Assembly: GCA_000091205.1 (NCBI GenBank)
Contig: AP006490.2
Reading direction: 5' to 3' (one strand)
DNA length: 64,000 bases
DNA from: Cyanidioschyzon merolae
Taxonomy: Eukaryota
Shown here piece after piece: positions 75 to 60,279 of this stretch. A program made the position numbers and the translations under genes. How positions within the stretch are numbered: position 1 is the first letter of the stretch; the number at the start of each line of letters is the position of its first letter. The notes below the pieces were generated by a model. That model made no database searches and was not told where the DNA came from. It saw nothing but the letters and a program-made list of their open reading frames with translations.

Positions 75-879
75 CAGTTCGTAGGCTCCGTCTACGGGCC
101 CTTTGACTCGCTTCCGGGGTAAGTCCAGCTCTCTGTAAGCGTTCCAGCGAAAAAATATACGTAGCTTGCGAGGCTCGTCCCAAACGATCGACCCCGAAGA
201 CTACGTTGCTTCGTTCAAAAGCATACTTCGGTGGTTATCCAGCCCCTTTAGCTGTGTGTGTGTAGTATGTTTGAACGTCGCAACGCCTCGGCAGGTATGC
301 ACCAGGAAAAGACGAGCAACGGAAACGCTTCGTTGTATGGGACCGTGCGGATGCTGCAATGTGCACATCGGCGCTCTCTTCCGAACACTCATCTCTGGAT
401 GGAATAGAACGGTTTTGTCTGACGGACTTGATTGCGTACAGTAAAGTTTGGGTGCTTTCCCGCTATGATCAGCACGGGCCTTTTCTTGTTTTTCGTGCTG
501 CAACTTCTTTTTCCTCCATCGTTGGTCCGGTTTTCGAGTACGCTGGTCTCTTGTTCTCCTGCAGCAACGTTGACAGCTGTCCAAGCAGGATGATAGCAGC
601 GCGCAAGTATCGATTTCAGTATTTCCAGCTGTTGTCTACACATTTCATGCACAGGCAAACAAAAAATTCGCGGTGTACGCTTCACTTGCCATAAGCATGA
701 TCCTACTGGTATAGAACTCGTGTGCGCCCTTCGCAGTGGTGACACCTGGTCGTTGTCCGGTGTCACTTTACATTGGTGGTACCTCGGCTTCGGACGGCTG
801 CCTTGTGGAGCGTAAACGCTTGCTCCCGAAGGATAGAGAAGTCTCGATCCGACACATTCATCGGTGACAGCGCTCGGTT

Positions 880-1400
880 GCATACCCTAGGATCAATGTG
901 CTGCTTCTGGACGATTCCCTCGGGGATGAACCCATCGCCTGCACCCACAATCGGATGCTTTTCCATTCGATGCATGATTTAAGGGATTCAAGGTTGTCCG
1001 CGATGGAGCAAGTGCCGAAAAGCAACTGCTGGTTGGAGAACAAGTCGAGAAACCTGGGTCCGTCTACGTCCACCTCGTGCAAAGCGCGAGCACGCCCTCG
1101 ACTGCAGCCGACAGCTGCGATCACCGAACGCCGACTCCAAGACACGATTCCATGTACACAAAAGACACTTCGTTTTTCGACCGTATATTCCGTGACAGGA
1201 ATCATGGCGCTACTGTTCACTACCTTTCCGGCAATGATCAAGAAGAAGGGATCACTTGTCTTTCGAGCGGAGTCGATGATTTGACGAGAAAAGTTCACTG
1301 AACGTGCGGCATGTGCTTGTGAACAAGTCTCCATGGGACCAGGTCGAGAGGTTTCTTCGCTAGTTCAGCGACGCGGACAGATTCGACCACGGGTTGCCTT
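880..1400 (-). repeat. Diverged dispersed repeat 'R1', copy A; inverted relative to copy B at about 18040-18460
   Basis: The reverse complement of about 1150-1340 aligns to 18100-18260 at roughly 80% identity. The ORF fragments of both copies share the peptide QIIDSxRKTSxP. Boundaries are approximate. Confidence 0.45.
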
Positions 1401-3220
1401 GCTGCTAGTCTACGGAACACTTGACGAGTGATGATTTGGGTGTGCGACACACAAGCAAAGGAGAAAAGTGGATGCTTGCGCCTATGCATTTGATTATAAT
1501 AGCGCTTATTTCAAGAGTCTTTTCTCGAGGGCACCGGGGATCATCTCGATCACTTGTCCATAACGAATTCCAGCGGTGTAGGATCCAAGGAGCCACACTG
1601 ACAACCATAAACCGGAATCCCGACACTCTCCATGAACCAGGACGCCCTGCTCGCTGTACGTCGACTGCCGAGGCAGTCCATCTGTAAAGTTCCAAGGACA
1701 AATCAAAAGCCAGGCAAAGCGTGAGCATTCCGAGCTCCGTTGCAAAGCGACACAGGTAGGGAAAAGGAGCACACGGTCTCTCGCCATCGACCTGGAGTAC
1801 TTGCACAAGACGGATAACGCGCCTCTCATGAACGTTATAGAGGCAGACAAAGCGTCAAGTCGCTGGCGCTCTGCGTACATACGGGCGGCGTCTATCATGG
1901 GCCCCGAAAGCCATTATCCATTCCGAATTCTGGGATCCGTGGTCAATCGAAACGTTTTGTCATCTGAAAATAAAATCTGTCAAGCACACGACGAGAACTG
2001 CAACCGTTGTGTTCGGGCATGTTTTCTCTAAAGTTATTTCGGTCCTGCGCCCTATGATTTAGAAACACTTTAGAAGTGTCTGCAGATCCGCTCATCTCGA
2101 GGCTCTACCAAACACAAGAATCGCTTGTGTTGAACAGACTCGGATGATCGAGTACCTCGCGATCGATACATCCATTGCCGTCTTGCACCCTTCCGTGGAC
2201 GTCCGGATGCCTCCGACGAACCATGCATGCAAGCATCGAACTTGGCCTCTCCACAGGCACCGATGTATTCAGGAACGTTGCTCACGCTCCATAAGCACCC
2301 ACGGAGGTGAACAAGAGGACCAGGTTCAGCGTAGGCGATGTTCTCGGCATTTAAGTGCGGCATTTTTCAAATAAGGATAGCGCACTCGATGCCAGCTGGT
2401 TCGGGAGTCAGCTCTCCGAATGATCTGGATATGCGGGAACCTTGGTGCTGCATAGAAAGCCTGTCCACTTCGGACAAAGGTCGCGGCGTGCAGAGAAAAA
2501 AAGTTCATATGGATTGGTCGTATTCCATGCATTCTCGAAATGCCTGGAGCGAACGCTGTCATGCCCTATCGCATGGCTTCTTGGCGTGTTCCTGCAATGC
2601 TCGCATCCTCTGACTCGATCGAATGATGCCGTTCCTGGAATCCGTGGCTGGCAAGTCTTAAAGTATCCTTTATTCCAAAGGTATCGGTTGCCATGGATAA
2701 GCCCGTTGTGTACCAGCGTTGCACGTGATTGGCACGCTGCCCTGCGTCACGTTCAAAGGTGCTGTTCGAGGCTGTTGGTGCGTTTCTTGTCCAGAGGTTT
2801 CGCGTCTGCTACGCCGACGCGCATGCGGACCGTATCCCAGTCGCGTGCCCGAGGATGTCGTGGTATTCATCGGGACGTACACAGCCATCAAGTATCGATA
2901 AAGCATGCGACGCACCAGAAACCAGGTCTGTGGATCTCAGCAGCCGAAGCTCGACGACACCAGCATATCGCTTTTACCCAGACGCCTACCGCACACAGCG
3001 CACTGGTGGAAAACGTAGCACACGACGACGTTGTGGACTTGCTCCCGACAGCTCCACCTGGGACCTGCTTTCCCAGATTGTAACTACCCAAGCGTTGCTG
3101 TCGGGACGCGGAGCTGAGCGAGTCTCGGCTCCTGACGCCTGCCTACCAGCGATCACGCGACATCGTCTCGTTTCTTCACTGTCGCCACTGAAGCGCTGAG
3201 CTCCCAATCGATCTGAAAGC

Positions 3221-5031: not shown

Positions 5032-8000
5032 ATGTCCAGTGATAATGGAGCGGTACCTCGCGGAGACTCCAGCGAGTTCCAGGACGCAAACTGGCCGGCA
5101 GATGCCGCCCCAGCACTGAGCGGCTTTCTCTTTGGCAACGTCGACGCCGAAGGCCGTCTCGAAGCAGACTACCTCGATGCGGACGCGAAAGCCTCGCTGC
5201 ACGTCATAGCACCAATGGTGCTGCCCGACGATGCCGAGGTGTTCACTGTCGCTACAGCACGCGCGAGCAAAAACTTCAACGACGGACACGAGCTCGGAGC
5301 GGACCCGAGGGCCTCGAGTGCGCTCGGGAGAGGCGTGTCGCAGGTGCTCACCTCCGCTCCACTGAACGGGGATACTGGTCTGGTGCATGCTGCCTCCGCT
5401 GCGCCTGAGACCGAACAAGATCGAGTGAGGCCGCTGCGCTCGACCCCGTCGCTTGTCCAAGACAGGAGCGCGTCTCCCGAGAACCTCGACTTTTACGATG
5501 CGTCTGATCTCTCTGAAGACCTCGATACCAGTTTCGACTCCCCGGGATTTATGAAGCCCTCTTCGAGCGCTCCACAGCGGACGTTGGAAGTGGTCGTAGG
5601 GGCATCGGAGGGCGCGCTGCCTTCCGCTGAGAGCAGCGAGCATCAACACCGGCACGGAGACGAAAACGCGTATAGCCTTCATGAGCAAGCTGCTCGCGAG
5701 GCGCTGCTCTCCACGGACTATGACGCCCTAAGTGAAGGCGATGATGAAACGGGCGACTCGAAACTGAAGGTCGCCGAGCCCGCCAGACTCGGACCTGGAA
5801 CCTCATCTGCGGGCTCTGAACGAGCGTTGCTGTCGGCGGAGAGAGCGCCCCTGCAACCTCAACCGGCTGCGAAAGCCTCTTCGCCTCAACAGAATCTTTG
5901 CTCAGATACGGATATACCGCGTTTCACGCGCTTCCTTGTGCCAGAGGAGCTGGTGCATCCATTTCACGCCACGAAGCGGAAACGAATCCGCTGGCAGAGC
6001 AAGTCGACACAAGCAGATGATCCGTCCGAACGCCTGGTCGGTGAGGAGCTTCTCTTCCAACGACCAGAGGATCTCAGATGGATCCGTTTTCCCTATGCCT
6101 ACCTGATTTTAGACGACATGCAAGAGGTACAGGAGCTCTTGCGCAAGACGATCCACCGACGTGTCCTAGCGGGCCGCGCTGGTGAATCCAAAGCGAATAC
6201 CCGCCGCTGCACACCGCTGGTAGCTGAAGCGGTCACAGAGATAGCGTCCAGTCGTGAAGGTACTCCAGCGACACCAGCACACCAAGCCGTCGAGGCGCCT
6301 GTAGCGGATGCTCACCGCTCTAACGGGCGATTGGCTGCAGGGGAGCGCACGCGAGCCGCAGCACCTTGTGCTCGTCCACATACGACAAGCGCGGACGATA
6401 CCTGCGCTGCTTTTCTGTGGCAGCAATGGCAATGGGAGCAGGATGTCTGCTGGGAAGAAACCAACAAGTCCACAACATTGCGATATTTGCCGGCTTCAGA
6501 GCGACTCGAACATGACGCGCAGCGAAATGAAGCGCTTGTCAATGGCGCCTGGACGCAGCTGGTCGCCTGGGAAGGACCGGCACCTGTGTGGCAGCGCTGG
6601 CGTCATCAGCTGGGGAAGAAAACCACCAGCGTACTAGAACTAGATGAGCATGCGATTGCCATCAGCAGACGATTCAGCTGGCTGCATCTGGATGAGAATG
6701 ATCCTCAGCTGATTCTGTGTCGCGCTGCGAATCGGCTGTTAACACAATCAGCGCCGAATCTGTACCTGCCGCAGCAGTTAGGCCAGATAGAGTCCCTGCT
6801 CATGAATGCGTCCAACGATCGTTTTTACGGTATCGAGATGACCGGGCAAAGGCGACGGAGTGCCCGCACCGAGGCCCTCGCAAACTTGCGTCATGCACTG
6901 AAAGCGCGCCAGGGCTATACCTCGGCGTGGTGCTACGGCTACACGGAACCCCAGAGTTACTATCGACCGAATATCTTGCCGATACTCTGGCAGTTGTGCG
7001 GTCAGCGTGCGGTGCCGTTGCTCCTATTTGCGGCAAAGTCGGCGCCCTCGATGCTACCGCACGAGATGCGTGCCTGGGTCCCGAAGAGCTGGAGCGACCT
7101 CTCGGGCATTTCGCCCAAAGCAGGCGGAGATATTTACTTGTTTGAATATCCACTGGAAGCCGATCCTTTTCTGGTCCAATTGCCAGGTATGGCTAGTCGG
7201 CTGCTCACCTATAGTCGCCGTGCAGCTGACGACACGGTCTCGAATCCCAGCGAAGACCCCGATACCGTCTATCTTGCCGCAGACGACTTGCCTCCGCTGC
7301 ACACCGGAGACGTGCGCCCCGGTCAGGTGTTACGCGTCTATGAGAACAATGCGTTTGCGGCTCCGTTTGAACCCGTTTCGCCACCTCAAACGGACTTTTT
7401 GGTCGTCTGTTCCGCTCAGCGCGGATTATACGTACGTCCAATCAAGCAAGTCCTAGCGATCGGGCGTCTCGAGCCACGGAACCGGCCCAAGGTCATGATT
7501 CCCAATAGTGACCGCATGAAGCGTTTCGTGAAAAACAAGATAGAACTCGATGTAACTCGTGAGCTGATTCGGCGTGGCGATACCGGGGTCGAGCGCTCCG
7601 AGGTCATTCAGATGTTCCCGCGACGTCGGGTTTACCCCGAGACCACGATTGCGAGCGTGCTGCGCGAGACTTGCGACAATGCCCGGAACCGTTACGTTAT
7701 CAAGAAGAACTATGTAGAGACCGTATGGCCCAAACGTGAGCTCGAGTTGTTGCGTTTCGTGACGCCCGAGGAAACCTGCGCCTTCGAATCGATGGAAATC
7801 GGCTGGGAGCAGCTGTCTGCCAAAGGGATCACGATCTTTTCGAGCCCGTCTATGCAGGGAAACATCGTTGGCGGAGCCGAGAAAGCAGGTCTCGGAGCCC
7901 GAGGTATCGAGATTGCTCGCTACATTCGAGAGGAACTGGCCAAGACACGTTGGGTTCGCACTGAGGTGCTCGTGCGCGCTCAGAAGAGTCTCCAGTTCGC

Positions 8001-16640: not shown

Positions 16641-18039
16641 AGGTGCGATTTCCCTTCGTTCGACAGAGCGTTGACACTGGATCAGGCCTCTCCGATAGCG
16701 TGCTTGCTATCAGCGATCAAGCGCGAATGGAGCGATGCGCTGCCTGTTCGGGCGCTGACGAGTCATGCGCTTGTCGCGGGCGTCTCCAAGCTTCGTTCAC
16801 GGATCCGTCACAGATGGTGTCTTAGGGCAGCGCGTAGCTGCCTCTAGAACGCTGTCCTCGACGTGTGCACTCCTGGAATGTGCGTATAACCACAACTCGA
16901 GCAGCGCGACGGGCGCATCCTGCTTGGATCTTGTTTAGACCCGCAGGGTCAGGCATCCGCACGGAACGATCGAGCATCCTGCAGATACGTTCCATCGATG
17001 CCATGCGCAGCTGCACACGACTTCTCTTCATTGACAAAACGTTTCCATAGGCCAGCGTTCTCCGATTATGCGCATTTTTCTTTTCTTTCTCTTTTGTTTT
17101 TTTTTTCAGTGCGAGGTGGAGTATCCATCAAACCCCCGATTTCCATGTTACATTACCTATATATCATCTCGGATATTTTGGTCGTTTCGTACGTCCTATG
17201 GTGTGCCGCACCCGCCGAAAGCGACAACAATGGCGCCTATAGCGCCGGTGCGGTCGCCGTATGGAGACAGAACGGCGTTAGCAGCACACGATGCGGGCGT
17301 GCAGGCGATGCGCTCGCGGTGACATGCACGATCATCGGGACGCCTTTACACACCGGTGTGCTTTGATTTGCTCTCCTCCAGTCGTGCACATCTGTGTACA
17401 TAGAGCGGCTGCTGCCTCGGGAAAAACGCCCATATAGGGTCTAACATGAGCGTTTGTGGTGTGGGATGCGAGCGTTCGCTCGGGGAGCGCGTGCGTCGCG
17501 TCACCCGATGTGGTAGATGCATACGCTGCGAGCACGACACCTGAACAACTCTGCCAGCGGTGCGCTTTACGCATCACAAAGTCACTTTAACCATTGCGGT
17601 CTCAGTGAATGGGCCCTAAAAGCATAACAGAGTCTTGGTTGGTGCGTCGGAAGCACGCTTTCCAGGTATTGTCACATGCGTAAAGATCAAAGAATGGGGC
17701 ACTGAACCGCTCACCCTCTTCCTGTCTCTCTCCTTTCTTCGGACTTTTCGTAGATGTACCTACTCGACATGACAAGTGTATCAGCAAGGACTTTTGGATG
17801 CATACGTTCTGTTCCGAGCTTCGGTCGTCGATTTGGATCGTCCGCTGCCACGTACGGCTCCTGGAGTTTGTCACATTATCGGGATCGAGATGATACGCGA
17901 CGCCGTCGTACAACGGTTCGTAAAATAACCGATATCATTACATAATGCAGACGTACAAGGCTTCGTGCTTCTCCTTTCGTTACGTGATGCACGCTCAAAT
18001 CATGTACGCATCAAGCTTTCGATCTTTCTCTTTGAAGGC

Positions 18040-23790: not shown

Positions 23791-25772
23791 GCACATAAAC
23801 GGCGCTCCGGCCTTGATGGGATGTTCATTGCACCATACCGATGTCTTGTACCAGGCGGGATTCCAGTGCCATCTGTCCTGGCTGATGCGCTTTGCGCACC
23901 AAAAGTTTTCCGCGTTCCAGCAAAGTGCTCAGACTGAACACGAAACGATTCTTTCGAACTTTCTCTCGACAGAAAGCCGTTGGATACTCAGGAAGCATGA
24001 GAAATTTCCGGATGTTGATCTAAGCGTTCAAGTCTCGGTACAGGATGTTCTTGCACGTTATGTTGCCGGTGGAATCACACCATAGCACGCCCAACGGATT
24101 CGATGGCCTTGCCGTTCGACGTACGAGCATCTTACCGAACGCCTCTGCTTCAGACGCTTCTTCTCGACCTGTTTCAGCGTGCACCCGGGTTCGGGATGCG
24201 CTGATGTCGTTCTCTACGCATCGATAGGAATCGTACAGAATCGATACCTGCACACATTGGACGCTCTCTTCGACGGAGCATGACCTGGGAATTCGCGCAC
24301 TTCAACATGACAAGTGCCACAGGCTGCGAGCTTACCGTGCGACTGATCAGTTATATCCCTGGCCAACCCAATGAGAAGAGGTTTGCGATTCCTTGCTCCT
24401 TTCCTGCGTACAATCGAGTCCTTTTGCGACTCGATCGCGGTCTCATGGATGATTGCCGCGGATCGTCCACAGAGGCCATTTGAACGTTGATGCACGGTAC
24501 GAGCAAGGAGTACAAAATTAAATTCTGCGTGATATGGATCCTGCCAACGCCATTCCATCGGGTCGTATGATCCATTATATCCCTGATGCCGGACGCATGA
24601 TAATGTCGAGACCTGAAAGAATCAGGCTGCAATTCATGAGGTGTTCCTAGCATTAGCACTGGTACAAAGGTATGATCGAATCGCTCGGCTGGAATTGGAC
24701 GCATTGAAGACCTTCCATGGAATCCTCTACGGAAACTTTCGTGAAGAAATGCTTCAAGGCGAGATAAGCTAGGTATTCCATCATGACGTCCAAATTAATA
24801 TTTTGAAAGATTTTCCCCGTTGGTGACTTTTAGAACGGAGGTACCGACAACGGGTCCACACTGATCTTCCTCCTCCGACAGATTTCCATGCTGTTTCTCT
24901 GCGTCCTCTTTCCGGGAGGGTCTTTCACGTTTTTGTCCGTTTTCCCGATTTCTCGTTTACCTCGCTTGGTAGCATAGACGTGGTCGCTGTATCCCATCTC
25001 CGTGCTTTCCATTGAATTCAGACGCACCGGATGGGCGACGGAACTGAAACTTGCCTCTCATGTTCATGTACCTGGTGTTGCTCAGGTGCCTTTTCGTCAC
25101 CCTTACCATGGCGTACACGCGCTTGGACCGAATCGGGCATGGCCTCCCTGTCCCGCATCCGAGCACAGTACCAACAGAGCAGCTCAGTGCTGGTGAAGCT
25201 ACAAAATGGATTGTCGAAGTCTTTTTGGGCCGCGGATGCGAACGACTCGTCCATGCATGCGTGAGCGTGAAAGTTGCGTTTTACGATACAGAAGACGCAT
25301 TCGACGCATTGTGCTGATACCGATGAGCGTTGCCACGAGCGACCGACTCGGCAGCTTGCCGCCGCCCTAGCTCCCAATGTCTCGTTTCCGAGGTACTCTT
25401 TCGAACGCTGACGCGAGCCTACGCCAGCAAGATGCGCACATTTCAGGTCGATCTGGATGGAACCTGGGTTGCCACGCTCGCGCTTCCTCCATCCCGACAT
25501 TCCCCATGTATCAACAAGACAAAAAAGGTTGCGCTGTACACCGCTCATCGATCATGTACTGGACGCCGTCGAGCTGGTGCGCACCAGACTAGCCATCATA
25601 CGCACTACACAGAAACGTCATACGCGTGCACAAGCTTTGAGCATGATCTGCTCCGCTGCTGCCGGGACCTGCCCCGGATCCAGCGCTAGTCTAGTAGCAG
25701 CTGCATTTGCGCCACGCTGTGTGCCAATGATGTGCTAGGTGCACCGCTCGAGATCACGCAAACACTCTAAAA

Positions 25773-47313: not shown

Positions 47314-50300
47314 CAAATATTTGCGATTTACAGAACACGTCACATTTTCAACTTACATGGGTGTAATAAGACGGATTAATCTCTCATCATGAAAAAGAAA
47401 TGCATCATCTCCCGAATTATGTTATTCTTTACATTCTATATACTACATGACTATCTGAATTTCTCTGTGGCCCTCCTCGGCTCATCTCAAACGAGCCCTC
47501 CAGCGAGACGCTTACGTTCTCACACCAGTGCTCGTTTGCTGCTTACGAAGGTTTAGTAATATCGAAAAATGGAAACCAAGAGGACTTGCTTCATCCTGCT
47601 AGAGAAAATCGTCCGGATGCATGGATATCGTGCTCCGGCTGTGCAATTTATTGAACGTTCCGTTAAAGTGGCACGCTCTAGGTGGGAATCCAGTAACCGC
47701 TCCCCTGGCCACTGATGTGTCTCATAGGATTTCAGCAGTTATTCAGCACAAAGTAGAGCGCGAATACGTGACAACTACCCCAAAACTTTCCTCAAAACAG
47801 AGCCGATGTACCCGCTTGATGCACGATGAATTTCCGAACAATCATCGAGGCGAACAATTCTCAGTATAGAGATGGCTCGAGCGCATTGAGGTTTGTCGAA
47901 TATCGCAAAAGTCAGTTTTTCGCATTCGATTACATCGCCATGTGATGTGCAGTCGACTCATTGAATACCATCTCGTGAACCTGGGTCAGGTACTCTCTCT
48001 TCTTCCGTACTTGTTTCTGCGTGCAGCCATGCTCATGATGCGTTTATATCCTGATGAACGCACCAATGAGAGTCCCGCAGAATCGAATCCTGTGCTCGTT
48101 TCATGCCCTCGTTGAAGGAGCAGTAATGCAGCCTTTACGCGCTACAGAAAGTCCAGCGACCTTAGCCGTTAAAGTGGGACACGAATTATATGTCAATGCC
48201 TGTTCCAACACCTTGACCATTTTTGGTGAATGCACACTACCTGCATCAGTGCGATTGGACCCGTTCGTGGCCATGGTGAATTCTCGTTTACTCCTGCCAA
48301 GGATCGTCCATATGAGAGAGTTGGACGCTAATGTACGCTGCGAATGCTGCGTGCAGAGATGCCCTTCAGCTCGATCCGGTGCTCAGGGCGACAAGTTGCA
48401 TATACTGCCGCCCCATTCGATTTTTCTCTGTTCCTCTCGGTATCCAGTATTTCCGACTGGCGATGATGTCGAGGCATGGTAAAACTGAGCAGCTACAACT
48501 GCTTTCTGTTCATGTCTTTGGCCCCGTTTTGGATTTATCGGAACCGAGACGGACACGATGCTATTGAACCGCGGATGCACGCCCTTCACGATGGCATTCC
48601 CTTCATAGAATTCGAAGCGTTCGACATGCGACCCGTTGCGTGATCCATTCCTAGGCATCACGAAGTGTTTGAAGACAGGCATTTCTTCGGTCTCCATATG
48701 CCTGTGAACTTGATCCAACTTCCTACCTGAATCGAGAGCTCTTCCACGTCCGCCCGAGCGCTTAACAAAATAGACCGAATAGATCATTCATGCTCGCAGA
48801 GACGATCCGTAGCGTACTGAGAAGGCCACAATTTACGATACGGAAATATCGGGGTTAGTATAAAGCAACGTAATGTGACAAACGGGCACCACATTTCTGA
48901 AACCAAAAGGAGTCTGGGGCTCGCAACTTTGATGGTCGGGGCTGCTCAGCTCTGAAGGGCCCTGCTCAGGAAGAACTCGCAGCGCGATGAGCATCCGAGG
49001 CACCCTCAGGTTCCAGATATCAACTCGTTCTGACACCCGTTGATCCGAACTTGATGGAACAAATACCGACTTTGGACGATCTCAAGCTATTCTCGCTCCG
49101 ATTGCGACATATTTTCCGATCTCGGTACCACCTCGATCTCTTCCGCTCCAGTTTAAAAATCACCCGCTTCGATATCCCCAAGAGTCCTTTTAACCAGTAC
49201 CCTCGGTTTCTGAGTCGCTACCGTGTCGCTCTAGAGAACGCAAGGTGCGGTTTGTGAAGCGCCGAAGCTTGAACGGTACACAATTTTTCCGCTTCTGAGA
49301 TTGGCTCGATGCTTTTCGTTGCCATTGGCACTTTCGGTGATCTGATTACCGAGATGGCACGCCCGCACTTCAATGCATTCTAAGCAATGGTTTGACGAAT
49401 CTCTGATATTTTAAACAGATTCTTCGCCTCCTCTGTGCCGAGTATCAGTTGTACTGGTGCGAGAAAGTATGATCCGAAAAATTCGGCGAAATGCCAACCG
49501 CTGATAGCCCTGCGTCTTTAGTTCCTCCCATTCGTTGCATGGCGAGATGCACCAAGACGAGGGAAACTGTGCGAATAGTCCCCGAGTGAGGAGCTGCGCG
49601 CTTCCCAACGGCTTGCTGCATCTCAAGTTTTGGGCCAATTTCCCCAATGATGTGATATAGTATGGAGGAATTGTTTGCTGTTTTTACTGATCTTTTAAAA
49701 CAGACTTTTCTCCTTTCTGTGGCTCCTAGTCCTCCGCGAAAATTGATCATTTACTTCTTTTTCCGGTAGTGTTGCCCTATCCTTTGTTGGGCAGGGAGAC
49801 CTGAATATGGCCGGTAAAAGCGAAACCAGTTTTTTGGCCCTTGGAATTTTGACGCACTTGGTCGACTCCGAGGCTCTAACTTGCTCTTTTTTTCGTCTGC
49901 ATCTCATACTGCCCGAATACGTGTACACCACCTTCCTGGTCGCGAGCACGCCCACAGACTGGACTGCACTTCTTCTGCCCCCTCCGACGCAAAGACGGAG
50001 CAGCGATAGTGCAGTTCATAGCTGTGACTGTAAAAATCAACTTGTCTATGGACAATGGGAAGAAGATCTATATTGCCGCGGATACCAGTGTCGCGTCTCT
50101 TGATTTGGGAACGTGAAAAAATGCATTTGACCAAGAAGAGGAAGCCTTCGTCCTAACTGTCTCGTAAAGAAAGGGCCTCAGCGAAGGGCAGCTCAACGCA
50201 GATCGCAGCGGCGGACAAGTTGACTGCTCCTGAGTCATGGAATGCGACGATTTCCAAGAGATAGACAGAATACTGTAGGATGGAGGAGCCGTAAAGCCCT

Positions 50301-51460: not shown

Positions 51461-54400
51461 TTAGCTTCGACGAGCCGGCAAGGATACAAGACGTACAGGA
51501 GCGGCTCCAGAATCAGCCGGCTGCATATTCGTATCCAGTGCAAAGCGCGGCCTACTTTCGGACGATTTCCCCCCGATGTCAACATAGGGTGTCGAGTCGG
51601 GCCTCAGGGAGTCTAACGTTTGCTGCGACCGGGTTAGCTGACGCGACGTCGAGCTGCTGCTGTGGTCTGCGGCGGCCACTTGGGAAACATCCCCGTTTCG
51701 CGAAGAAGCGGCACGCTCCGTTATCGGATGTAAGGGCAGATCTGTGCTCGCTTCCTCTTCCGCAAGTCGTTTCCATTCATTTGCAAACTTACGACATATC
51801 TTCCCAAAAAGCGCGAGCAACTGAGCACTTTCAACCTGCATTTCTGCCCCGAGCTCTTCGAGTGGACGGCGCTGGAGTCCCACACCAACCAGGATAGCCT
51901 GCTGCGCCGGCGACAGCGTAATCCGCTCTGCAGCAAAATGGCCTTCAAAGTACAGACGACTCAGCACCGGAATGATATCCAAAATCACGTGATAGTCCAG
52001 CAGATGGTTTGCATACGCTTGCAAACGCCGCAAGTCGTGCATGGAAAGTAGCAAGCGAAGTTGTGCCGCGTTCCACAGACTGGCGTCGGGCGGTGCAGCT
52101 CGCAAGACGTCCAGCACGAGACCCAAGGGTAACGAGCGAAAGTCGTATGAGAGCAGCGACAGAAACCGTGCTCGCCAGTCCAAGTGCAGGGCCCTAAATC
52201 CCTGTTCATGGGCCTGCTTCAAACTCCGAAGCATGATGCAGGTATGCTCCGCAGTGACCTCATTCGGGGTAAGTCGCACGTAGACTGGCAGCATACCGAT
52301 GCGATTCCAGAATCGATACAGTCCGTGTGAGAGACCGAACGAAACCCCCAGATAGTCCAGATCCGGAACCCTCTGTTCACTCAGTCTGTAAAGCAACGGC
52401 TCCGGTACCGTGTCGTCATTGATGCTTCCCACAGACAGATCGGGTTGTGCATCATCGGTTTCTCGCAGAGTCTTTCGTTCATGCTGCTGCACACCGGAGG
52501 CCACTCGACGGCGGAAATGTTCCACGAGGCACTCCATGGCGCGGGTGCCGTAGCCCATACCTTGCACATCAGGATGCGTAGCAATGCGGATGACCCGAGC
52601 ACCTGCCAGTTGAGCAAAGGCTGTCTCCTGGAACTGTTGCGTTAGCGTCCACGGAATGAGGTCCCCAGCAGCTCGCTTCCCTCGCGACAACTGAGACTCG
52701 GTGTGTTCACGCGAGAGGCGCCCCTCGAGTCCTAGCTGAATGGCGCACAGCACATCCGGTAGTCGTTTTGGATCAGAGGAAGTTGGCCCCAGCAGCACAT
52801 ACAGCTGCTGGTTCGATGCATCGCTCAGCATCTGAAGATCATTGGGGGTGTTCTTATAGTGCGAGGACACAAAAAGCGCCATTACCCGACGGAGGAAAAT
52901 TTCCGCTAGGGCGTGTCCACTGAAAAGAACGTCGCGATTGACTTGGCATAGCGTGCACATGGAAGGGTGCGGAAGCGCACGTGTCTGCAACGCTGGCGCT
53001 TCTGTCGTCTCCAGGCAGAGGAGCGCGTGAAGCCACGCCTCCACCGGATCGTTGCGAGCGTAGCGGATGGGCTCCTCGAGAACAAGCTCGTGGAAGCGTC
53101 GACCATATTGCCGGGTGCTGGAGTCACAGCCGTGCTCTACTGGCGGCTCGATGCCGCCATTTGGGGTATGCGACACATCTTCCGGCATTGGGGGTGGCAC
53201 AAGCCTACTTTCTGCCGCCACTGAAGTGTTTTGTTGAACATGGCGGCGAGCCTGCGCGATCAGCTTGAGGGAGAGACTACGGCCGGTTCCTTCGTAACCG
53301 AAGATCGTCGACGATAGGAAGACGTGACACGATTTGCTGGGCAGAAGTGAGAGTATTCGTTTCACAAGTACCAGCGGTATAGCGGCTGCTTCATCAATAA
53401 TGACGAGGTCAGCGCTTACGAGGGCACCAATGGTGGCGGCATCCACCCGCCGGATAGCCTCTGGCTCAAGGTACGAGACCTGACGCACCCGCCGCCCAAG
53501 CATAGAGAGCTTGCTTATGCAGCGATCGTGTCGGGATTCTAGCACATAGTCCGTATGTTCTTGTAACTTGAGCTCATTCAGGCCTGACACTAAGAGTGAA
53601 AATAGAGTCTGGACGTTGTCCGCTGCGGGCGCTGTCACCACAATGGACGTGTAGCCGAGCGCAAGCGCCGCAGCCGCCGCTAGCCCCAGCGCCGCAGATT
53701 TGCCCCTGCCACGAGCTGCTGTCAAGACCACCATGGACGCTGCAAGCGCAGCCGGAGTTGTTGTATCGACGTTGCGGGCCAGCAGGGCATGAAGCGTCTC
53801 CAGGACACGAGCCTGGTCGAGCGTGCGGGTGCGACGCAGCAGCGGCCCTAGCACTTGCAGGTCTGCACGGGATGACCATAAGATTTCGAGCTGCTTTTGG
53901 CGAAACTCCGCTTCCGAAGTGACGTTGGAGTCGCCCACGGTGCCGCCAACTTCCGGAGGCGAACGAACATGAATCCGGGGAATAGAAGCGAGATCTTGCG
54001 CCCTGGAGCTATCATCTGCATTTGCAGCCTGAGGTATCGAATATGCTGACGAGCAGCTCGCACCACCAACGGCAGGAAGCACATTGAGTTCATCATCTAC
54101 TGCAAGCGCCATAGGGCAGGTCTCGAGGCTGAGGACGAGTCGCCGATTAAATCGTGGTACTATATCCGGGCACGATTCCGTGCGATAGTGGGCGTGTACG
54201 TCCATTTTCAGCGTGTACAGCTGCCGCAAACTCTCCATGTTATGCAAGAGGAACAATACCAAACCGCCTCCCTGCACAGTCTCGATCGTGCGTGCAAGAA
54301 GGTTCGGTGTAAGGGCTCCAAAGTCCTGTAGAACAAGGAGACCATAAGTGTTCCCAAGCACCTTTTCGGATTCAGAGTAGTACGAGAAGCGGATGTTAGC

Positions 54401-54700
54401 TGTCGAGACGAATAGTTCAAAAAGGTCTTCGGTTTTGGCGTCCACAGAGACTCCACCGTGTCGCAGCTTTTTGCGGAGTTGTCGCAGGCGTTTGCGGCGG
54501 TGCGACGAAAAACCCAGTTCCTTCTTATACATCCAAAGGACATCTGGCCGCGGCCTCGTTCCGATCCGAGTAAGTAAGTGGTAAAAGAAAGGGACCTGAT
54601 CTTTGGCGTGATCACCAACAACAAAGAAAAGCGCGCGGGTGTGTGTCTCGTAGGCGCGAACGAGCAGCTGCCGTACGCGTTCATCAACACGCTTCTTCAT
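51461..54700 (-). CDS. NAT10: RNA cytidine acetyltransferase NAT10/Kre33
   Basis: The N-terminus MKKRVDERVRQLL...RALFFVVGD aligns with human MHRKKVDNRIRILIENGV...RSLFVVVGD. A helicase-like Walker A motif and GNAT and tRNA-binding regions are present in a single 1079-aa ORF. The ATG is at 54698-54700. Confidence 0.9.
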   Translation of the reverse strand: MKKRVDERVRQLLVRAYETHTRALFFVVGDHAKDQVPFFYHLLTRIGTRPRPDVLWMYKKELGFSSHRRKRLRQLRKKLRHGGVSVDAKTEDLFELFVSTANIRFSYYSESEKVLGNTYGLLVLQDFGALTPNLLARTIETVQGGGLVLFLLHNMESLRQLYTLKMDVHAHYRTESCPDIVPRFNRRLVLSLETCPMALAVDDELNVLPAVGGASCSSAYSIPQAANADDSSRAQDLASIPRIHVRSPPEVGGTVGDSNVTSEAEFRQKQLEILWSSRADLQVLGPLLRRTRTLDQARVLETLHALLARNVDTTTPAALAASMVVLTAARGRGKSAALGLAAAAALALGYTSIVVTAPAADNVQTLFSLLVSGLNELKLQEHTDYVLESRHDRCISKLSMLGRRVRQVSYLEPEAIRRVDAATIGALVSADLVIIDEAAAIPLVLVKRILSLLPSKSCHVFLSSTIFGYEGTGRSLSLKLIAQARRHVQQNTSVAAESRLVPPPMPEDVSHTPNGGIEPPVEHGCDSSTRQYGRRFHELVLEEPIRYARNDPVEAWLHALLCLETTEAPALQTRALPHPSMCTLCQVNRDVLFSGHALAEIFLRRVMALFVSSHYKNTPNDLQMLSDASNQQLYVLLGPTSSDPKRLPDVLCAIQLGLEGRLSREHTESQLSRGKRAAGDLIPWTLTQQFQETAFAQLAGARVIRIATHPDVQGMGYGTRAMECLVEHFRRRVASGVQQHERKTLRETDDAQPDLSVGSINDDTVPEPLLYRLSEQRVPDLDYLGVSFGLSHGLYRFWNRIGMLPVYVRLTPNEVTAEHTCIMLRSLKQAHEQGFRALHLDWRARFLSLLSYDFRSLPLGLVLDVLRAAPPDASLWNAAQLRLLLSMHDLRRLQAYANHLLDYHVILDIIPVLSRLYFEGHFAAERITLSPAQQAILVGVGLQRRPLEELGAEMQVESAQLLALFGKICRKFANEWKRLAEEEASTDLPLHPITERAASSRNGDVSQVAAADHSSSSTSRQLTRSQQTLDSLRPDSTPYVDIGGKSSESRPRFALDTNMQPADSGAAPVRLVSLPARRS

Positions 54701-54884
54701 CGAAAGCTGCTAACGGTACCAAAGTTCGTTGCAGGTCCGTACCGATCCAAAGCGTAGCCACGCTGTAAAGCGCCGTTCTCAAGTGGAACGTCGCCGGTCG
54801 TGTACAGTAGTGACGAGGCACCCGCCCTAAACATAGAGTACCAAGCGACGTGCAGACGCCTCGTAGTTTTGGACCCGCCACGTT

Positions 54885-57513
54885 CTACTGCTTCCAGGTT
54901 TTTCTCATATAGTTCCACTTTGGGTTTTCTACCCCAACAATCACTTTTGTCCATTCTGGAGGTCTTTTCTCCATCATCGCACATCTACTCATATAGAGCG
55001 CGGCGCTAATATCTCGGTTCACAAACTCCATACGTTTCTTGCCATCATTGGTTGTACTAAACAATGCAGGTACTCCATCAACTTTCGCCCTCCTTTCCAT
55101 TCGCTCTTCCGTCAACGCTCCATGCTTTTTTATATCCTTCGGGGCTCCTTTGGCACTTTTCCATCTCGACGCTTTCAAGTACACAACCCAACTCGTGTGG
55201 TGCATAGGACGTTCGAGACTCATTTACAGGTATCGTAACGAGACTCCGTGTACACTCCTTGTACGTTCTTGTCGTCGAGGCTGGTGTACACCCTTTTTGG
55301 GTCTTCCAGCGCCCTGCTCCGTATGCTACTACGAGCATCTGACATTCATTCTCCTTCAGGGCGCTCAACTGATTGAAAAAGTTGGCAAATGCACGCTGCC
55401 ACCCACAGTATAGATTGATTCGCAGACGAGCCCACGGAGGCTTTGTAGATTCTTTCCACATTTCCTCCTACTAAACAAGGCGAACCTTCCATGGACTCGC
55501 GAAAAGCTTCAGTGTCCGCTCTGGCGCTCGCCGCCTCGCTCAAAGCTTCCACGTGCTCTTTCATTCATGCATTCCAGGCCCCAATTTTCTTCCTCGCACT
55601 CATGATTCCCGATTCTCCATGGTATCTCGCTCTCGAGAACATCAACAGACGCATGTCTTTCTGAAGCAAGTTACCGTCAGTACCATCTTCCGCACGCTTG
55701 GGAGCAGCGGTGGTACTGATATTCGTGTTGCCGGGGTCCGCGCCAGCGAAAAGGTCGTTATCCTCCACCTCCTGCGTCGCAGGACCCGCCACCTTCTTTT
55801 CTTCCTGCTTCGCCGCGCCAACGACAATATGGTTATCTCCACCTCCTGCGCCGTTGGATGCTCCTACTTCTCATCTTCATCCTTCGCCAAGGGCGGAACT
55901 GGACGATCTGTCTTCAAGCGCCGATGGTGTCCACACATGGCTACCCTATCGGTCTCGATCAACCCAGTGAATACCTTTTTCTTGCTCGTTTTCAGACGTT
56001 GGGAATCGAAGGTATTGTTCCAGTACGTGTCCCGGTTTTCACCGGAGAACACCTCCCCGCTGAAATCGAGCTCCGGGCTGATCTCCTGCATAATGCCATG
56101 GATTCTGGAGTCGATACTCACAAAATGTGACTTGAAGTTGCATAACGGAGCGACACTGAAGCGGCTCTCCAGAAGCGCAGCCTTCTGTGTCTCCCACTCT
56201 TCATTTTTCCCCACGCCCAGTTCCGTTTCGGCCTTGCATTCCAGTTCTCGGTCCAAAAACACGAAATGTCGCTGGATGCGATAATAATATCTTTCTTTAT
56301 CTTTTTGCAACTCTGATATCTTGTATGTTGGACTCATCAGCTCCAAGACTGCATGGTGCTCTTGTATAAACGCACGGATGAGGGAGTCCTCATTTATGCC
56401 ATCGTTTGACGTCTTCTAGCCGACAAATTCGACCTCATCTTCATGCTCACGATTGTTCGTGATGCGTTTGATAATCGCCCGTTTCCCATTACGAGAGACG
56501 CCCGGGCAGAGTGCAAACACGGCGCGTAACATGAAACGTTCGAGGTTCACCGTCAAATGGTTCTCCAGGTTCGTGATGTACTTCATCGCCCCATAGCCGT
56601 AAATATTCTGGTCACCCTTGCATCGAGTACCATTGAAGCTGTAAAAGGGATGCTTTTCGTGGAGAGCATGCACTAGCTCATTTTCACTCCGCGCTTCCTC
56701 TGTACCAAGTATCAGCTGACGAATTAAGGTCTTGTCGAAACCTCGTCTGGAATCTCGACAGTTTCCATGTGCGCCACGTCGCGATACATCTCCCTCGCCT
56801 AATGCATCAGTCCTGAAGAAGCCTTTATAATGCTCATGGAGTACGAGTCGCCACGTTTTATGATAGAGTCTCGCAATTTTTCCATGTATGGATCCTTGAT
56901 TTGTCCAAGAAGAAAGGTTTTCACAATCATCTCGTCGTACAGTTGCCTTTCCCGCAGCCTGCGACGTAGGGCCTCCCCTTGGCTTCTTCTCGACTTCCTT
57001 TTCTTCTGGACTCGGCACTGTTTTTTGTTTTTTCGGGCACCCAGCGACCCTGGGCCTCCAGGATCGTGGACTTGCTTTGTGATAGCTTCCTTTTTTAGTT
57101 TTTTTTTGAAAAACAACGCTCTTTGAACGCTTCTGCGATATACTGCGAAAAAACACTTGACTAGATATGTTTGAGGTGTGAAACAAAAACGAACTGAAAG
57201 ACTGTACTTGGCTACGACCTGAACGGAAATCCAACTTTTTTCGGTAGAACAACACGCTTCTGATCGAGATCGCGTTTCCCTTCAACAACGGCATGCGCAT
57301 CGTGTCAGTTGACTGACTGATCTCCCAGTTGCGCTCATTTAGCGCAATGCATCCACTGCGCGAGACGCTACTCCGATCGATGAAGGACACGTGTCCGAAA
57401 ACCCCGCCTTGGCACATGCGTGTTCGCATACCACTGCAGCCAAAATAAAGTATCGTAGATTGGAAACTCACGTAGAATGATCTCTTGCTACAGGCTCTGT
57501 CGCTGGTGCCCAT
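54885..57513 (-). pseudogene. Fragmented TnpB/Fanzor-like (OMEGA-family RuvC nuclease) gene relic within an AT-richer spacer; probably part of a decayed transposon
   Basis: Four collinear minus-strand ORF pieces are present. Piece 56416..57513 has a Lys-rich, NLS-like N-terminus. Piece 55864..56346 lies in the same frame as the first, separated by a single TAG, and contains a RuvC-I-like segment [31 protein letters not shown]. Piece 55078..55461 reads I-NLYC-GWQRAFANFFNQLSALKENECQMLVVAYGAGRWKTQKGC, which aligns with ISDra2 TnpB [41 protein letters not shown]. Piece 54885..55223, in another frame, has KKRMEFVNRDISAALYMS, matching the RuvC-III signature DRDVNAAKNI. A possible RuvC-II remnant, QEVEDNDL, lies between. 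Domain order and span (about 870 aa) fit Fanzor1/TnpB. Confidence 0.5.
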
Positions 57514-58540
57514 TGCAGTACCGCCCTGACATACATGGAGATGCAGCGGCCTGGTACGATACCCGTCGACGCTTCTATCAAACGCGTATCTTTCTCTGCG
57601 GCTTACGCGTGTGCGGATGAGGTATGCATCACTCTACTCAATAGAAATTTCGTTAATTTTATTGATCGTATATAAACAAGACACGGAATGATTCCTGACC
57701 AAGGATATTCGTTTAATCAATATGCTTGTTATGCATGCCGCACCGACGCTGGAATAAGGACCTGACCTGAATTTCGCTACTATCCTGTGCCATGGGCTGG
57801 AGCTGATGCCTGTTCAAGTCATTGCCATGCTGCCGTGGTTGTCCAAGTTATGGTGCCTGCTTCGTCCTCAGGATCCGGCGATCTTGGCGGAGGCAGAGCA
57901 CACAGGTAGCGTCCATGTCTGCCACGAGGTTTGAGCCTTCCATCTCGCCTGGCACGATCGTGGCACTTGACAAAAGCGCATACTGTATTCTGGTCTACTC
58001 TATCAGATTATTTTCAAAAGCCTAACCCGTACATCGAGCCCGAACGAGGCACCCCTGAAAACAAACGCCTTTCGAAAGTCGAACGGCGCCAGCGGTGCAC
58101 AGTAGTGGCGAGTGGCCCGCCCTAGAAATGACATCTCCAACTGACGTGCAGACGCATCCAAAATAAGATACCACCTTTGAAAATTTCCTTATGCCTCCTC
58201 TACGGTACTCGTCGGCGAGCTACGTGGAAGTTCGTCTACGATTGTTGTGATCTCTGAGCGCAGCACTGCGGAACCCTTGGCACCAATTACTGATGAGGTT
58301 GTTGATGGGAAGCATAGGAGATACGTCTAGTTTCTGAAAAAGACACTGAGCGCTTGTGCTAGATGTGCTCAACGCTAGACATTCTACGGGAGATTTAGGT
58401 CGGACTCTGGACAATGGATGGGTGATCACTCGTGCAGCTACGCAAAAGAGGTTTTTGACTGGATACGCACACCTACGCGAGCGATTCTAGCCGGTGACGT
58501 GATCGGCAGCTTTGCACCGGAGAAAATCTAATCCAAGAAA

Positions 58541-59616
58541 ATGCAAGCTCTTTTCGTTTCTGTTCCGCTGTACCAGGAAAGACATATTGTTTGCGCGCGC
58601 GCTGCAACCCGAGCACCGTTCCTGCTGCGTACGCATCGTGACGGTTACTTCGCAGCTGTACATCGTCACCATTGCCAGCATCCGCTGCCCTTCGTGGTGC
58701 AGCGTTCGCCTGCGGTGCGCAGGCATCGTATGCCGCATCTTCGTATGGGTCCGAAGCAGTCGCAGATCGCCGTCATCACTGGCGCGTCCTCTGGGGTCGG
58801 TCTGTATGCAGCTCCCGCTCTGATCAACAAGGGCAACTGGCACATCGTCATGGCATTTCGTGACATCGACCTCGTGGAGCGCGCAGCAAACAGCGTAAAC
58901 CTTCTAAAGGACGCCTATACCGTGCTGCATTGTGTTATGGCTGATTTCGCCTCTGTGTTGAAGTTTGTGAGAGAGCTGTCAAGTGTGGCGCGCGTCGATC
59001 ACCTGGATACCCTGATCTGCAATGCCGCAATCTGGCATCCGCCGGACAAGAAACGGCGTTTCACGGTGGACGGCATCGAGGAAACCATGCAGGTATGCCA
59101 TCTGAGCCATTTGCTTCTATGTCGGGAGCTGTTGCCGAAGCTGAAAATATCGCGCAGGCGCATTGTGTTTCTGACGACTCAGACACACTCGCCGAATTCG
59201 CTACCGGGAAAGATCCCCCGCAGGCTCGTCTCGGGGATTCGTCTAGTCTAGCCGCGGGGCTTGGTCCGCAGACGACAGGCATGGTAGAAAGTGGTCCGTT
59301 TGAGCCCACAAAAGCCTACAAAGACGCCAAAGCCGCGAACGTGTTATCAATGAAGGCGCTCGGTCATTGATACGGCCGCGACGGTGTGACCTCTGTGACG
59401 ATTTTCCCGGGATGTGTCGCCAACAGCAACCTCTTCCGCGAAAAGCGTGGCTGGTTCCGCTACATATTCTTCCCGATTCATCAGAAGTACATCACTCGGC
59501 AATACGTTCCCAATGATGAGGCCGGACGCCGTGAAGCCGAAGTGGCGACCCAGGGACAGTTCTCGGACTCGGGCTCGTATTATCAGTGGCGTGGCAAATA
59601 TACGTATGGGGGATAG
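58541..59616 (+). pseudogene. Light-dependent protochlorophyllide oxidoreductase (LPOR)-like SDR with a presequence; disrupted by a 1-bp frameshift and an in-frame TGA
   Basis: VITGASSGVGLYAAPALINKGNWHIVMAFRD aligns with Arabidopsis PORA [45 protein letters not shown] aligns with KAYKDSKVCNMLTM. PGCVANSNLFREKRGWFRYIFFPIHQKYITRQYVPNDEAGRR aligns with [41 protein letters not shown]. The frame shifts from 2 to 1 at the A3/C5 run gggaaagatccccc near 59205-59220. The stop at 59368-59370 (cat TGA tac) aligns with a conserved Arg, so it is a CGA>TGA change. Confidence 0.6.
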
Positions 59617-60279
59617 AAGTCCGAACCGCACGTTATTGAACCAACGTACGAAATCGACAAGGCAGATCAGCTTTACGAACTGAGTCTTGATCTGATCGAC
59701 CAGGCGTTACGGAGGCGAGGCCTCAAGTCGACTATCTTGGCCCCTGTCTAAGGTTTGTTAGTGGTGAATATGGGATGCGCCTTCGAAGCGCAGACCGCTG
59801 CGTCGAGGACGCATGTGGGAGCAACAGCGTAACGATGAAACGGCACCCCACTGTCACGATCGGATAGTGATCGGGTGAAAGGGCACTCCTCCTGATGTGG
59901 TGAGCCAAAATTGCTTCGCAAGTCATAAAGCGTACTGCAGTAGTGATTAATATAGCTATAGCTATGAGCTATTTCGCATCGAATGCGCCAGAGACTGCCA
60001 ACTGTGGTCGTTCAAGAGGGCAGAGCGTGTTTATTTGGGTAATCTGTAACTCTTTTTGCCATAAAGGATACGGCAATAGAAGCGCACTTGCAGACGTTTG
60101 AAAAATCTGTGGGTATTCGATATCAAAGTGGGTCAACGGGCGTGGATTAATGAAAGCTCGGCAGTGAATGCTCCAGCAAGATATGGTGCATTGAACGAAT
60201 CCGACCCAAGGATTGTACCAGGCGCTAGCTATGGGTCAGCATTCTGGAACAACATTGAGACTAATCCGATCATATTTGG

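Follow-up and report, generated by a model that had tools for sequence, protein, structure and literature searches.

The minus-strand segment 57352-54771 of a 64,000-nucleotide stretch of the Cyanidioschyzon merolae 10D genome (contig AP006490.2, GenBank assembly GCA_000091205.1; the whole stretch is called the window below) is almost certainly an old, neutrally decaying and non-functional copy of the transposable element CMe-1A, which carries the Fanzor1 gene CMe-1. A first-pass annotation of this DNA had described a fragmented TnpB/Fanzor-like gene in a degraded transposon, upstream of the NAT10 gene and in the same orientation; this description stands, given an 82% match to CMe-1A, matches among PDB structures to Fanzor1 proteins only, and the predicted fold of an intact relative, P0124. 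The rarity and novelty that it implied do not. CMe-1A was described from this same genome in the paper that named Fanzor (Bao and Jurka, 2013, Mobile DNA 4:12; PMC3627910), as a family of around 150 copies, each about 80% identical to a consensus of roughly 3 kb; it has no terminal inverted repeats (TIRs), its target-site duplications (TSDs) could not be determined, and its classification was given as unknown. The same authors list a single Fanzor family for C. merolae and report that intact Fanzor1 open reading frames (ORFs) persist in some CMe-1A copies (PMC3627910). As the region in the window is 82% identical to the published consensus, what has been found is a copy of a family already described, and the locus is an ordinary dead member of that family, known since 2013.

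We compared the window with the 3169-bp CMe-1A consensus and the CMe-1 protein, as given in Additional files 2 and 3 of PMC3627910. In blastn searches consensus positions 671-2196 match 57322-55813 (81.0% identity) and positions 2117-3145 match 55817-54792 (82.7%), both on the minus strand. A global alignment pairs consensus 601-3169 with 57390-54771 at 82.3% identity over 2543 columns, and reaches the terminus of the consensus exactly at 54771. From these alignments the decayed core of the element, consensus ~650-3169, is placed at 57352-54771; this core block is common to about 70 related loci, and an identity of ~82% to the consensus is the level typical of CMe-1A copies (~80%). The G+C fraction of 54771-57352 is 0.495, against 0.565 in the NAT10 coding sequence (CDS) and 0.547 in the whole window, in agreement with the earlier remark that the block is richer in A+T than its surroundings. 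The absence of TIRs, also remarked on then, is upheld by a repeat search of 53000-60000, which returned only short inverted pairs of low identity, none of them at the ends of the element.

The Fanzor1 coding remnant

The consensus ORF of CMe-1A (positions 906-3110) encodes the 734-residue CMe-1 protein and is intron-less. Its remnant in the window, delimited by alignment to that ORF, runs from 57083 to 54828 on the minus strand, with the 3' limit of about 54828 extrapolated; it is a pseudogene and cannot make protein. The start codon has changed from ATG to ATC (57083-57081), and ten indels of 1-5 bp shift the frame, near 57034, 56996, 56990, 56979, 56744, 55821, 55486, 55139, 54934 and 54841. 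Five premature stops are present: TAG at 56801-56799 (Leu96), TAG at 56418-56416 (Lys224, AAG in the family consensus), TGA at 55567-55565 (Gly488), and TAG TAG at 55473-55471 and 55470-55468 (His519/Trp520). All five fall at codon-aligned positions, and no intervening sequence lies between the frames.

The first-pass annotation had allowed for either a pseudogene or a gene with short introns and had counted four minus-strand ORF pieces. The coordinates of these pieces (54885-55223, 55078-55461, 55864-56346 and 56416-57513) are correct, and the last two do share one frame split by the single TAG at 56418-56416. The count does not hold, in view of the ten frameshifts and five stops, and one catalytic motif, GADPGNTNI, sits in a fifth, unlisted piece at 55870-55568. 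Within the 365-aa ORF the ancestral frame is kept only by the final ~107 codons (56739-56419); a tblastn frame map places the ancestral N-terminal third in another frame, at 57083-56748.

Were the fragments instead a live Fanzor gene, its frames joined through short spliceosomal introns or programmed frameshifts, the survival of all three catalytic codons (Asp 55738-55736, Glu 55221-55219 and Asp 55013-55011) would be accounted for, and introns do occur in the Fanzor genes of other eukaryotes (PMC10530073). We nevertheless regard this reading as extremely improbable, since frames that are separated by 1-5 bp indels and point-mutation stops, with nothing inserted relative to an intron-less consensus ORF, are not separated by introns; the start codon and the five codon-aligned stops also speak against it, and the intact relatives are single uninterrupted ORFs (752 aa in P0124, 734 aa in the consensus). 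Introns number only a few dozen across the whole C. merolae genome, which counts against a live gene as well. Of the two options first offered, the pseudogene is therefore the one that stands.

Comparison between strains bears on the age of the insertion. The downstream neighbour, NAT10, encodes an RNA cytidine acetyltransferase (54700-51461, minus strand; exact match to BAM79919.1 / XP_005536205.1) and is not part of the element, with which it shares its orientation. NAT10 and three other proteins encoded in the window are identical to C. merolae 10D entries in NCBI/UniRef. The orthologous locus in a closely related strain (L075) is 97.6% identical over 13.5 kb and carries the same insertion. 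Between the two strains the relic is 98.45% identical and the NAT10 CDS 99.38%, the relic evolving about 2.5 times faster, and this lower identity is consistent with the unconstrained decay of an old insertion.

The three RuvC catalytic codons that remain in the window copy lie in three different frames. The RuvC-I motif GADPGNTNI is at 55744-55718, in the frame 55870-55568; its Asp (codon 55738-55736) corresponds to D484 of P0124 and aligns with the DPG/DPN strand of PpFz1 (Parasitella parasitica) and SpuFz1 (Spizellomyces punctatus). The RuvC-II Glu (codon 55221-55219) belongs to the VNE at 55227-55219 of VNESRTS, for which the family consensus reads VDEFRTS; the corresponding E656 aligns with DEFRTS/DEYKTS of PpFz1 and SpuFz1, the relocated RuvC-II Glu of Fanzors. 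In the family a Gly, within LVVAYGAG, stands at the canonical RuvC-II position and the Glu of VDEFRTS follows ~35 residues later, which fits the relocated glutamate and rearranged catalytic site reported for Fanzors (PMC10530073). The NRD of NRDISAAL is at 55019-55011 (Asp codon 55013-55011); it corresponds to D725, aligns with the nRD of PpFz1 and SpuFz1, and is, as first assigned, the RuvC-III motif. D484, E656 and D725 are near-invariant among 94 family members.

The other hallmark blocks cited in the first-pass annotation, VSIDSRIHG and GW..F...QL..K...LVV, are present as strings and precede NRDISAAL in the order it gave. VSIDSRIHG (56121-56095, minus strand) was, however, misread as RuvC-I. 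It precedes the RuvC-I Asp by ~180 residues and is a motif conserved in the N-terminal part of the family's proteins, reading FVTIDSRVLHG in CMe-1; in SpuFz1 it aligns with VRIDTIILYQ, which comes before the FxGxIxTDG strands. Two tandem units of ~75 bp on the minus strand (55888-55763; direct repeat spacing 74 bp, with a 1-bp slip) encode the 25-aa acidic repeat ..KHEEKKEAxPATQEVxDNDxVV.., and this segment has 62 extra bp relative to the consensus, with one extra, slipped 25-aa unit.

Homology of the family to Fanzor1

The relationship to Fanzor1 was established with a profile (A2) made from a 94-sequence alignment headed by P0124 and including relatives 70% identical to the window copy. Against 177,635 PDB sequences this profile matched only PpFz1 (9cf0, E=1.5e-18) and SpuFz1 (8gkh, E=7e-12), with both matches collinear through xIDxxxLY, FxGxIxTDG, DPG, DEFRTS and NRD. 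The deeper alignment was required for this, as an early profile (A1) and the single sequence P0150 gave SpuFz1 only marginally (E~0.4). A six-frame hmmsearch of the window with the family profile returned six collinear minus-strand segments, with E values from 7e-35 to 1e-7, that span profile positions 3-595 of 620, a match far beyond chance.

The fold was examined on the intact P0124, which is 70% identical to the window copy, and not on the pseudogene itself. The AlphaFold2 model of this protein has a pLDDT of 83 and a pTM of 0.80, with residues 378-470, which equate to the 25-aa tandem-repeat insert, disordered. In a Foldseek search of the PDB the top seven matches are all Fanzor1 (SpuFz, PpFz and GtFz; E 5e-16 to 2e-13); SpuFz1 is the best (E=5e-16, TM 0.72), target TM values reach 0.73, and Cas12 and TnpB rank far below. 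The profile and structure searches, of the kinds proposed in the first-pass annotation as checks, both lead to Fanzor1. Judged from the model, CMe-1 would share the fold of the characterised nucleases SpuFz1 (8GKH, 9CEU-9CEZ), PpFz1 (9CF0-3) and GtFz1 (9CER), with E~1e-15 and TM at most 0.73. It differs from them in an identity of only 12-14%, in having no CxxC...CxxC zinc ribbon, and in the disordered 25-aa acidic repeat that precedes RuvC-I.

The concatenated C-terminal 300 aa of the window copy matched 214 proteins at up to 71% identity, all of them unnamed metagenome ORFs, and the N-terminal part matched longer relatives, among them P0124 (752 aa, uninterrupted) and P0150 (665 aa, intact, 28% identical). 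P0150 has in turn ~95 diverse relatives of ~600 aa, several of which score above the Pfam gathering threshold for PF07282 (TNB domain, Cas12f1-like/TnpB), and an exhaustive profile search yielded 2292 relatives at E<=1e-3. The group P0150-P0244 holds the nearest intact relatives of CMe-1 outside Cyanidioschyzon-like metagenomes; these proteins, of ~590-700 aa and ~30% identity, come from AT-rich contigs, some of them 150-560 kb long, and mostly lack the zinc-ribbon cysteines, as CMe-1 does. Pfam searches of the close relatives gave no match, and a weak PF26935/DUF8286 label was uninformative.

Across 31 family copies, identity at codon positions 1, 2 and 3 is 0.84, 0.87 and 0.77, which indicates that the family evolved under protein-level constraint, though the copy in the window is dead. 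From homology with SpuFz1, PpFz1 and GtFz1 we infer that intact CMe-1, of ~734 aa and with a RuvC triad of Asp, relocated Glu and Asp, would be an omegaRNA-guided DNA endonuclease.

Several results weigh against assigning the locus to a Fanzor1-bearing CMe-1A element. Neither the six ORF pieces nor the frameshift-corrected 300-aa concatenate matched anything in Pfam, and a phmmer search of the concatenate against the PDB was likewise empty; at the level of sequence comparison, the Fanzor homology of the window pieces is transitive, passing through closer relatives and the profile. The C4 zinc finger between RuvC-II and RuvC-III, a Fanzor/TnpB motif (PMC3627910), is not found: where SpuFz1 and PpFz1 carry CxxC...C..C, the CMe-1 lineage has TSYTHHELGC...EKC...RGLLALVSTT, with two Cys only in place of the four. 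Consensus positions 1 to ~650 find no match at the locus, and this includes the 5' 635 bp of CMe-1A, which correspond to TE-N2_CMe (PMC3627910). An omegaRNA role of the 3' module finds no support: 84.7% of cells are paired in a covariation analysis of three hand-drawn hairpins, which equals the shuffled mean; RNAalifold on 37 3' ends recovered only three pairs, all invariant; and Rfam gave no match at E<=1 in 54400-58400. With respect to the zinc finger, CMe-1 was placed in Fanzor1 all the same (PMC3627910), and for this reason we treat the missing cysteines as a lineage-specific loss and not as a ground for exclusion.

That the fragments belong to an unrelated gene family, with TnpB-like motifs matching by chance, would agree with the empty direct searches and with the fact that one of the three motifs first named was mis-assigned. 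The profile E values of 1e-18 and 7e-12, obtained exclusively with Fanzor1 structures, the all-Fanzor1 head of the Foldseek list, the PF07282 domain in relatives, and the 82% DNA identity to an element that its discoverers named as Fanzor1-bearing make the probability of such coincidence negligible, and we retain the assignment to CMe-1A and Fanzor1.

The two ends of the element

The 3' end is sharply defined. The published consensus ends in a hairpin, present in the window as GCGACGTTCC-ACTTGA-GAACGGCGC (54794-54770, minus strand; -10.8 kcal/mol), and similarity among 50 related copies ends sharply past this terminal hairpin, ...GGCGTCGTTCGA-CTT-TCGAACGGCG. A short tail, TTTACAGCGTGGC (54769-54757, minus strand), is a weak candidate for an additional 3' segment; G/T-rich tails resembling it follow the hairpin in several independent copies, for example TTTGTTTCCAGGAGTGGC and TTGATGGTGC. 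The element accordingly ends at 54771, or possibly at 54757, which is 70 or 56 bp upstream of the NAT10 ATG (54700) and not the ~185 bp first estimated. The 3' flanks of the copies contain no clear target motif or transposon-adjacent motif, only the fuzzy G/T-rich tail, and ARAGORN found no tRNA in the window.

TnpB elements encode their guide RNA at the right (3') end, where it overlaps the end of the ORF. The consensus ORF of CMe-1A stops only 59 nt short of the terminus of the element, as one would expect were an omegaRNA to overlap the end of that ORF. Of 44 copies, 39 have a hairpin that folds better on the sense than on the antisense strand, with mean energies of -11.5 and -7.4 kcal/mol; G-U pairs account for the difference. 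A structured RNA, for which the first-pass annotation proposed a search here, has in its favour a hairpin present in nearly all copies and the sense bias, and against it the covariation, RNAalifold and Rfam results given above. An all-against-all scan of column pairs in the 3' ends was set aside, having produced many spurious GU-rich helices. The last 100 nt are conserved at 0.72 across copies, no better than third codon positions at 0.77. The fold and strand bias of the hairpin are, however, properties inherited from the consensus. The hairpin could plausibly serve as a cis-acting or transposition end, or as the final stem in the scaffold of an omegaRNA. That the 3' module acts as an omegaRNA may reasonably be proposed by analogy.

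One related copy (L030, ~2400-2429) has, in place of the usual terminal hairpin, an unrelated GC-rich hairpin with a perfect stem of 11 bp, GAGCACGCGC-TCG-TGCGCGTGCTC, of -22.9 kcal/mol; this could be a structure-preserving replacement or merely a palindromic flank.

The gene could be dead while its 3' module (54862-54757) is still used, either as a trans-loaded omegaRNA whose guide extends into the NAT10 leader or by co-option into the NAT10 promoter or 5' untranslated region. The retention of the terminal hairpin and its better folding in the sense strand would suit such a role, as would an element end 56-70 bp from the ATG of a gene in the same orientation. Comparable positions are seen at two other loci: in L001 the element 3' end is at 1842 and a same-strand SMC gene begins at 1902, ~60 bp on, and in L002/L003 the 3' end at ~7430 precedes a same-strand VHL-domain gene that begins at 7577, ~150 bp on. 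With the window, this makes three unrelated loci at which a distance of ~60-150 bp separates a CMe-1A 3' end from a host gene that follows it in like orientation. Set against this, pairing in the module is no better than in shuffles, with three RNAalifold pairs and no Rfam match, its last 100 nt show no more conservation than third codon positions do, and the relic evolves ~2.5 times faster than the NAT10 CDS between strains; we consider continued use unlikely.

The 5' side is mosaic. A 5' alignment of 35 copies gives as the common 5' limit of the core a small GC-rich hairpin, TGCGCT-AAATG-AGCGCA in the window (57346-57330, minus strand), with the variants GCGCTC..GAGCGC and GCGCG..CGCGC elsewhere, and at least four unrelated upstream modules, one of them the TE-N2_CMe module, join the core at this hairpin. 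Immediately upstream of the core, approximately 10 of 38 related copies have a module matching part of TE-N2_CMe (consensus 90-227); in the remainder different modules take this position. In the window a non-consensus module of ~710 bp (58065-57353, minus strand), common to ~11 of 71 related loci, stands where the CMe-1A consensus has its TE-N2_CMe part of 635 bp. Ahead of this module comes a solo CMe-1A 3'-terminal module, with hairpin, in direct orientation (58159-58066, minus strand; consensus 3073-3169, 79.4%), which sits 3.3 kb upstream of the relic's own 3' end and is seen as a direct repeat; this arrangement is found also in L006, L037, L059 and L071.

Judged from these alignments, the window copy is a 5' variant or mosaic and not a canonical full-length CMe-1A, and the element to which it belongs probably extends through the 5' module to 58065. 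Similarity to relatives ends at scattered points (~57335-57350, 57390, 57474, 57546, 57966, 58031 and 58126), most often near 57335-57350, and no 5' terminus, TSD or target motif could be defined among the relatives compared. Solo fragments of TE-N2_CMe occur elsewhere in the window, at 17018-17311 and 1903-1977, with consensus 90-227 matching 17142-17279 (73%) and consensus 2-63 matching 1964-1903 (89%). More than 20 of the loci retrieved contain a TE-N2_CMe piece of ~260 bp, which lies 10 bp upstream of the Fanzor core in those ~10 of 38 copies.

Genomic context and relation to known systems

On the 5' side of the element, at 58541-59700 on the plus strand, lies a short-chain dehydrogenase gene (Pfam adh_short, E=7e-15) that appears by eye to be protochlorophyllide-reductase-like (POR-like). 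In 10D its coding sequence is disrupted, shifted in frame near 59206-59218 and interrupted by an in-frame stop near 59370, and the related strain (L075) has an intact 352-aa ORF; this gene is 94.7% identical between the strains, compared with 98-99% for its neighbours. Two metagenome loci, L006 and L037, were considered as orthologous to the window and rejected: the upstream POR-like gene is shared with it, as is the element, at ~80% identity, and NAT10 is not. Positions 1-4583 of L006 and 8-4961 of L037 correspond to window 59384-54768, a block of ~4.6 kb and ~80% identity that contains the POR-like gene, the solo 3' module, the 5' module and a CMe-1A copy; the gene downstream differs from that in the window and in L037 encodes a Myb-like protein. 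The shared block points to an old segmental duplication, with the transposon as part of it.

The window contains two more Fanzor relics, and all three are on the minus strand. The second, at 23960-24932, is much older and unrelated to CMe-1A at the DNA level; it is collinear with CMe-1 residues 112-129, 466-552 and 560-624 at ~37% identity (e.g. TIPIDA*RTT..PEPGCTLKQVE), also matches the RuvC-III region of distant relatives, and has stops and an internal deletion. The third, at 48008-48979 and possibly extending to 49750, is very degraded and Fanzor-like: CMe-1 residues 571-620 correspond to 48157-48008 at 40% identity (..THHEHGCTQKQV) and residues 280-329 to 48979-48839, and a weak profile match covers 49448-49750 (E=0.0024).

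With canonical CMe-1A and CMe-1 the window copy shares its genome, the ORF, the exact 3' terminus, the absence of TIRs and the ~80% level of divergence; it differs in that the ORF is destroyed, the TE-N2_CMe part is replaced by the ~710-bp module and the solo 3' module, and one extra repeat unit is present. The element SPu-1 has 33-bp TIRs and TA target-site duplications, whereas none are reported for CMe-1A (PMC3627910). With the TnpB of IS200/IS605 elements such as ISDra2, CMe-1 shares a RuvC nuclease of the same superfamily, and both have hairpin-bearing ends without TIRs; CMe-1A differs in being eukaryotic and in encoding a protein of roughly double the size, which is long in its N-terminal region and has a weak Foldseek match to TnpB (E=0.018). 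No TnpA (Y1 HUH) partner is known for CMe-1A, for which no genome-wide search for HUH genes was made. The Helitron2-borne CRe-1, -2 and -3 of Chlamydomonas are likewise multi-copy algal elements with Fanzor1 as their only gene; they lack TIRs and TSDs, and a hairpin lies close to each end (PMC3627910). Unlike these, CMe-1A has no identified RepHel partner, asymmetric terminal inverted repeats or Helitron end signatures, the same limit on the HUH search applying here.

In the account that we propose, CMe-1A is a TIR-less, non-autonomous family of DNA transposons whose intact members encode a ~734-aa nuclease of the TnpB superfamily with an Asp/relocated Glu/Asp RuvC triad, and transcription of the element's 3' end would yield the guide RNA of CMe-1. 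A more speculative extension, which we hold to be unlikely as it stands, is that CMe-1A is a hairpin-ended, TIR-less element of the single-stranded DNA type (of the IS200/IS605 or Helitron2 kind), or one spread by Fanzor-assisted homing, in which the ~95-nt 3' module would be both cis end and omegaRNA scaffold, and dead copies could supply guide RNAs, here into the NAT10 leader, to intact Fanzor made elsewhere. If this were so, the solo 3' module at 58159-58066, the mosaic 5' modules at the hairpin junction and the positions upstream of genes would be its footprints.

As one dead copy among ~150 diverged ones, the locus adds little in itself, although it shows that a Fanzor relic can be spotted by a reader of the raw sequence. 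The sharp, hairpin-ended 3' terminus and the mosaic 5' side could help to classify CMe-1A, and the CMe-1 lineage appears to represent a Fanzor1 clade that kept its coding capacity after loss of the zinc-ribbon cysteines. Because C. merolae is genetically tractable and almost intron-free, an intact CMe-1 would be convenient for testing what role Fanzors play for their host elements.

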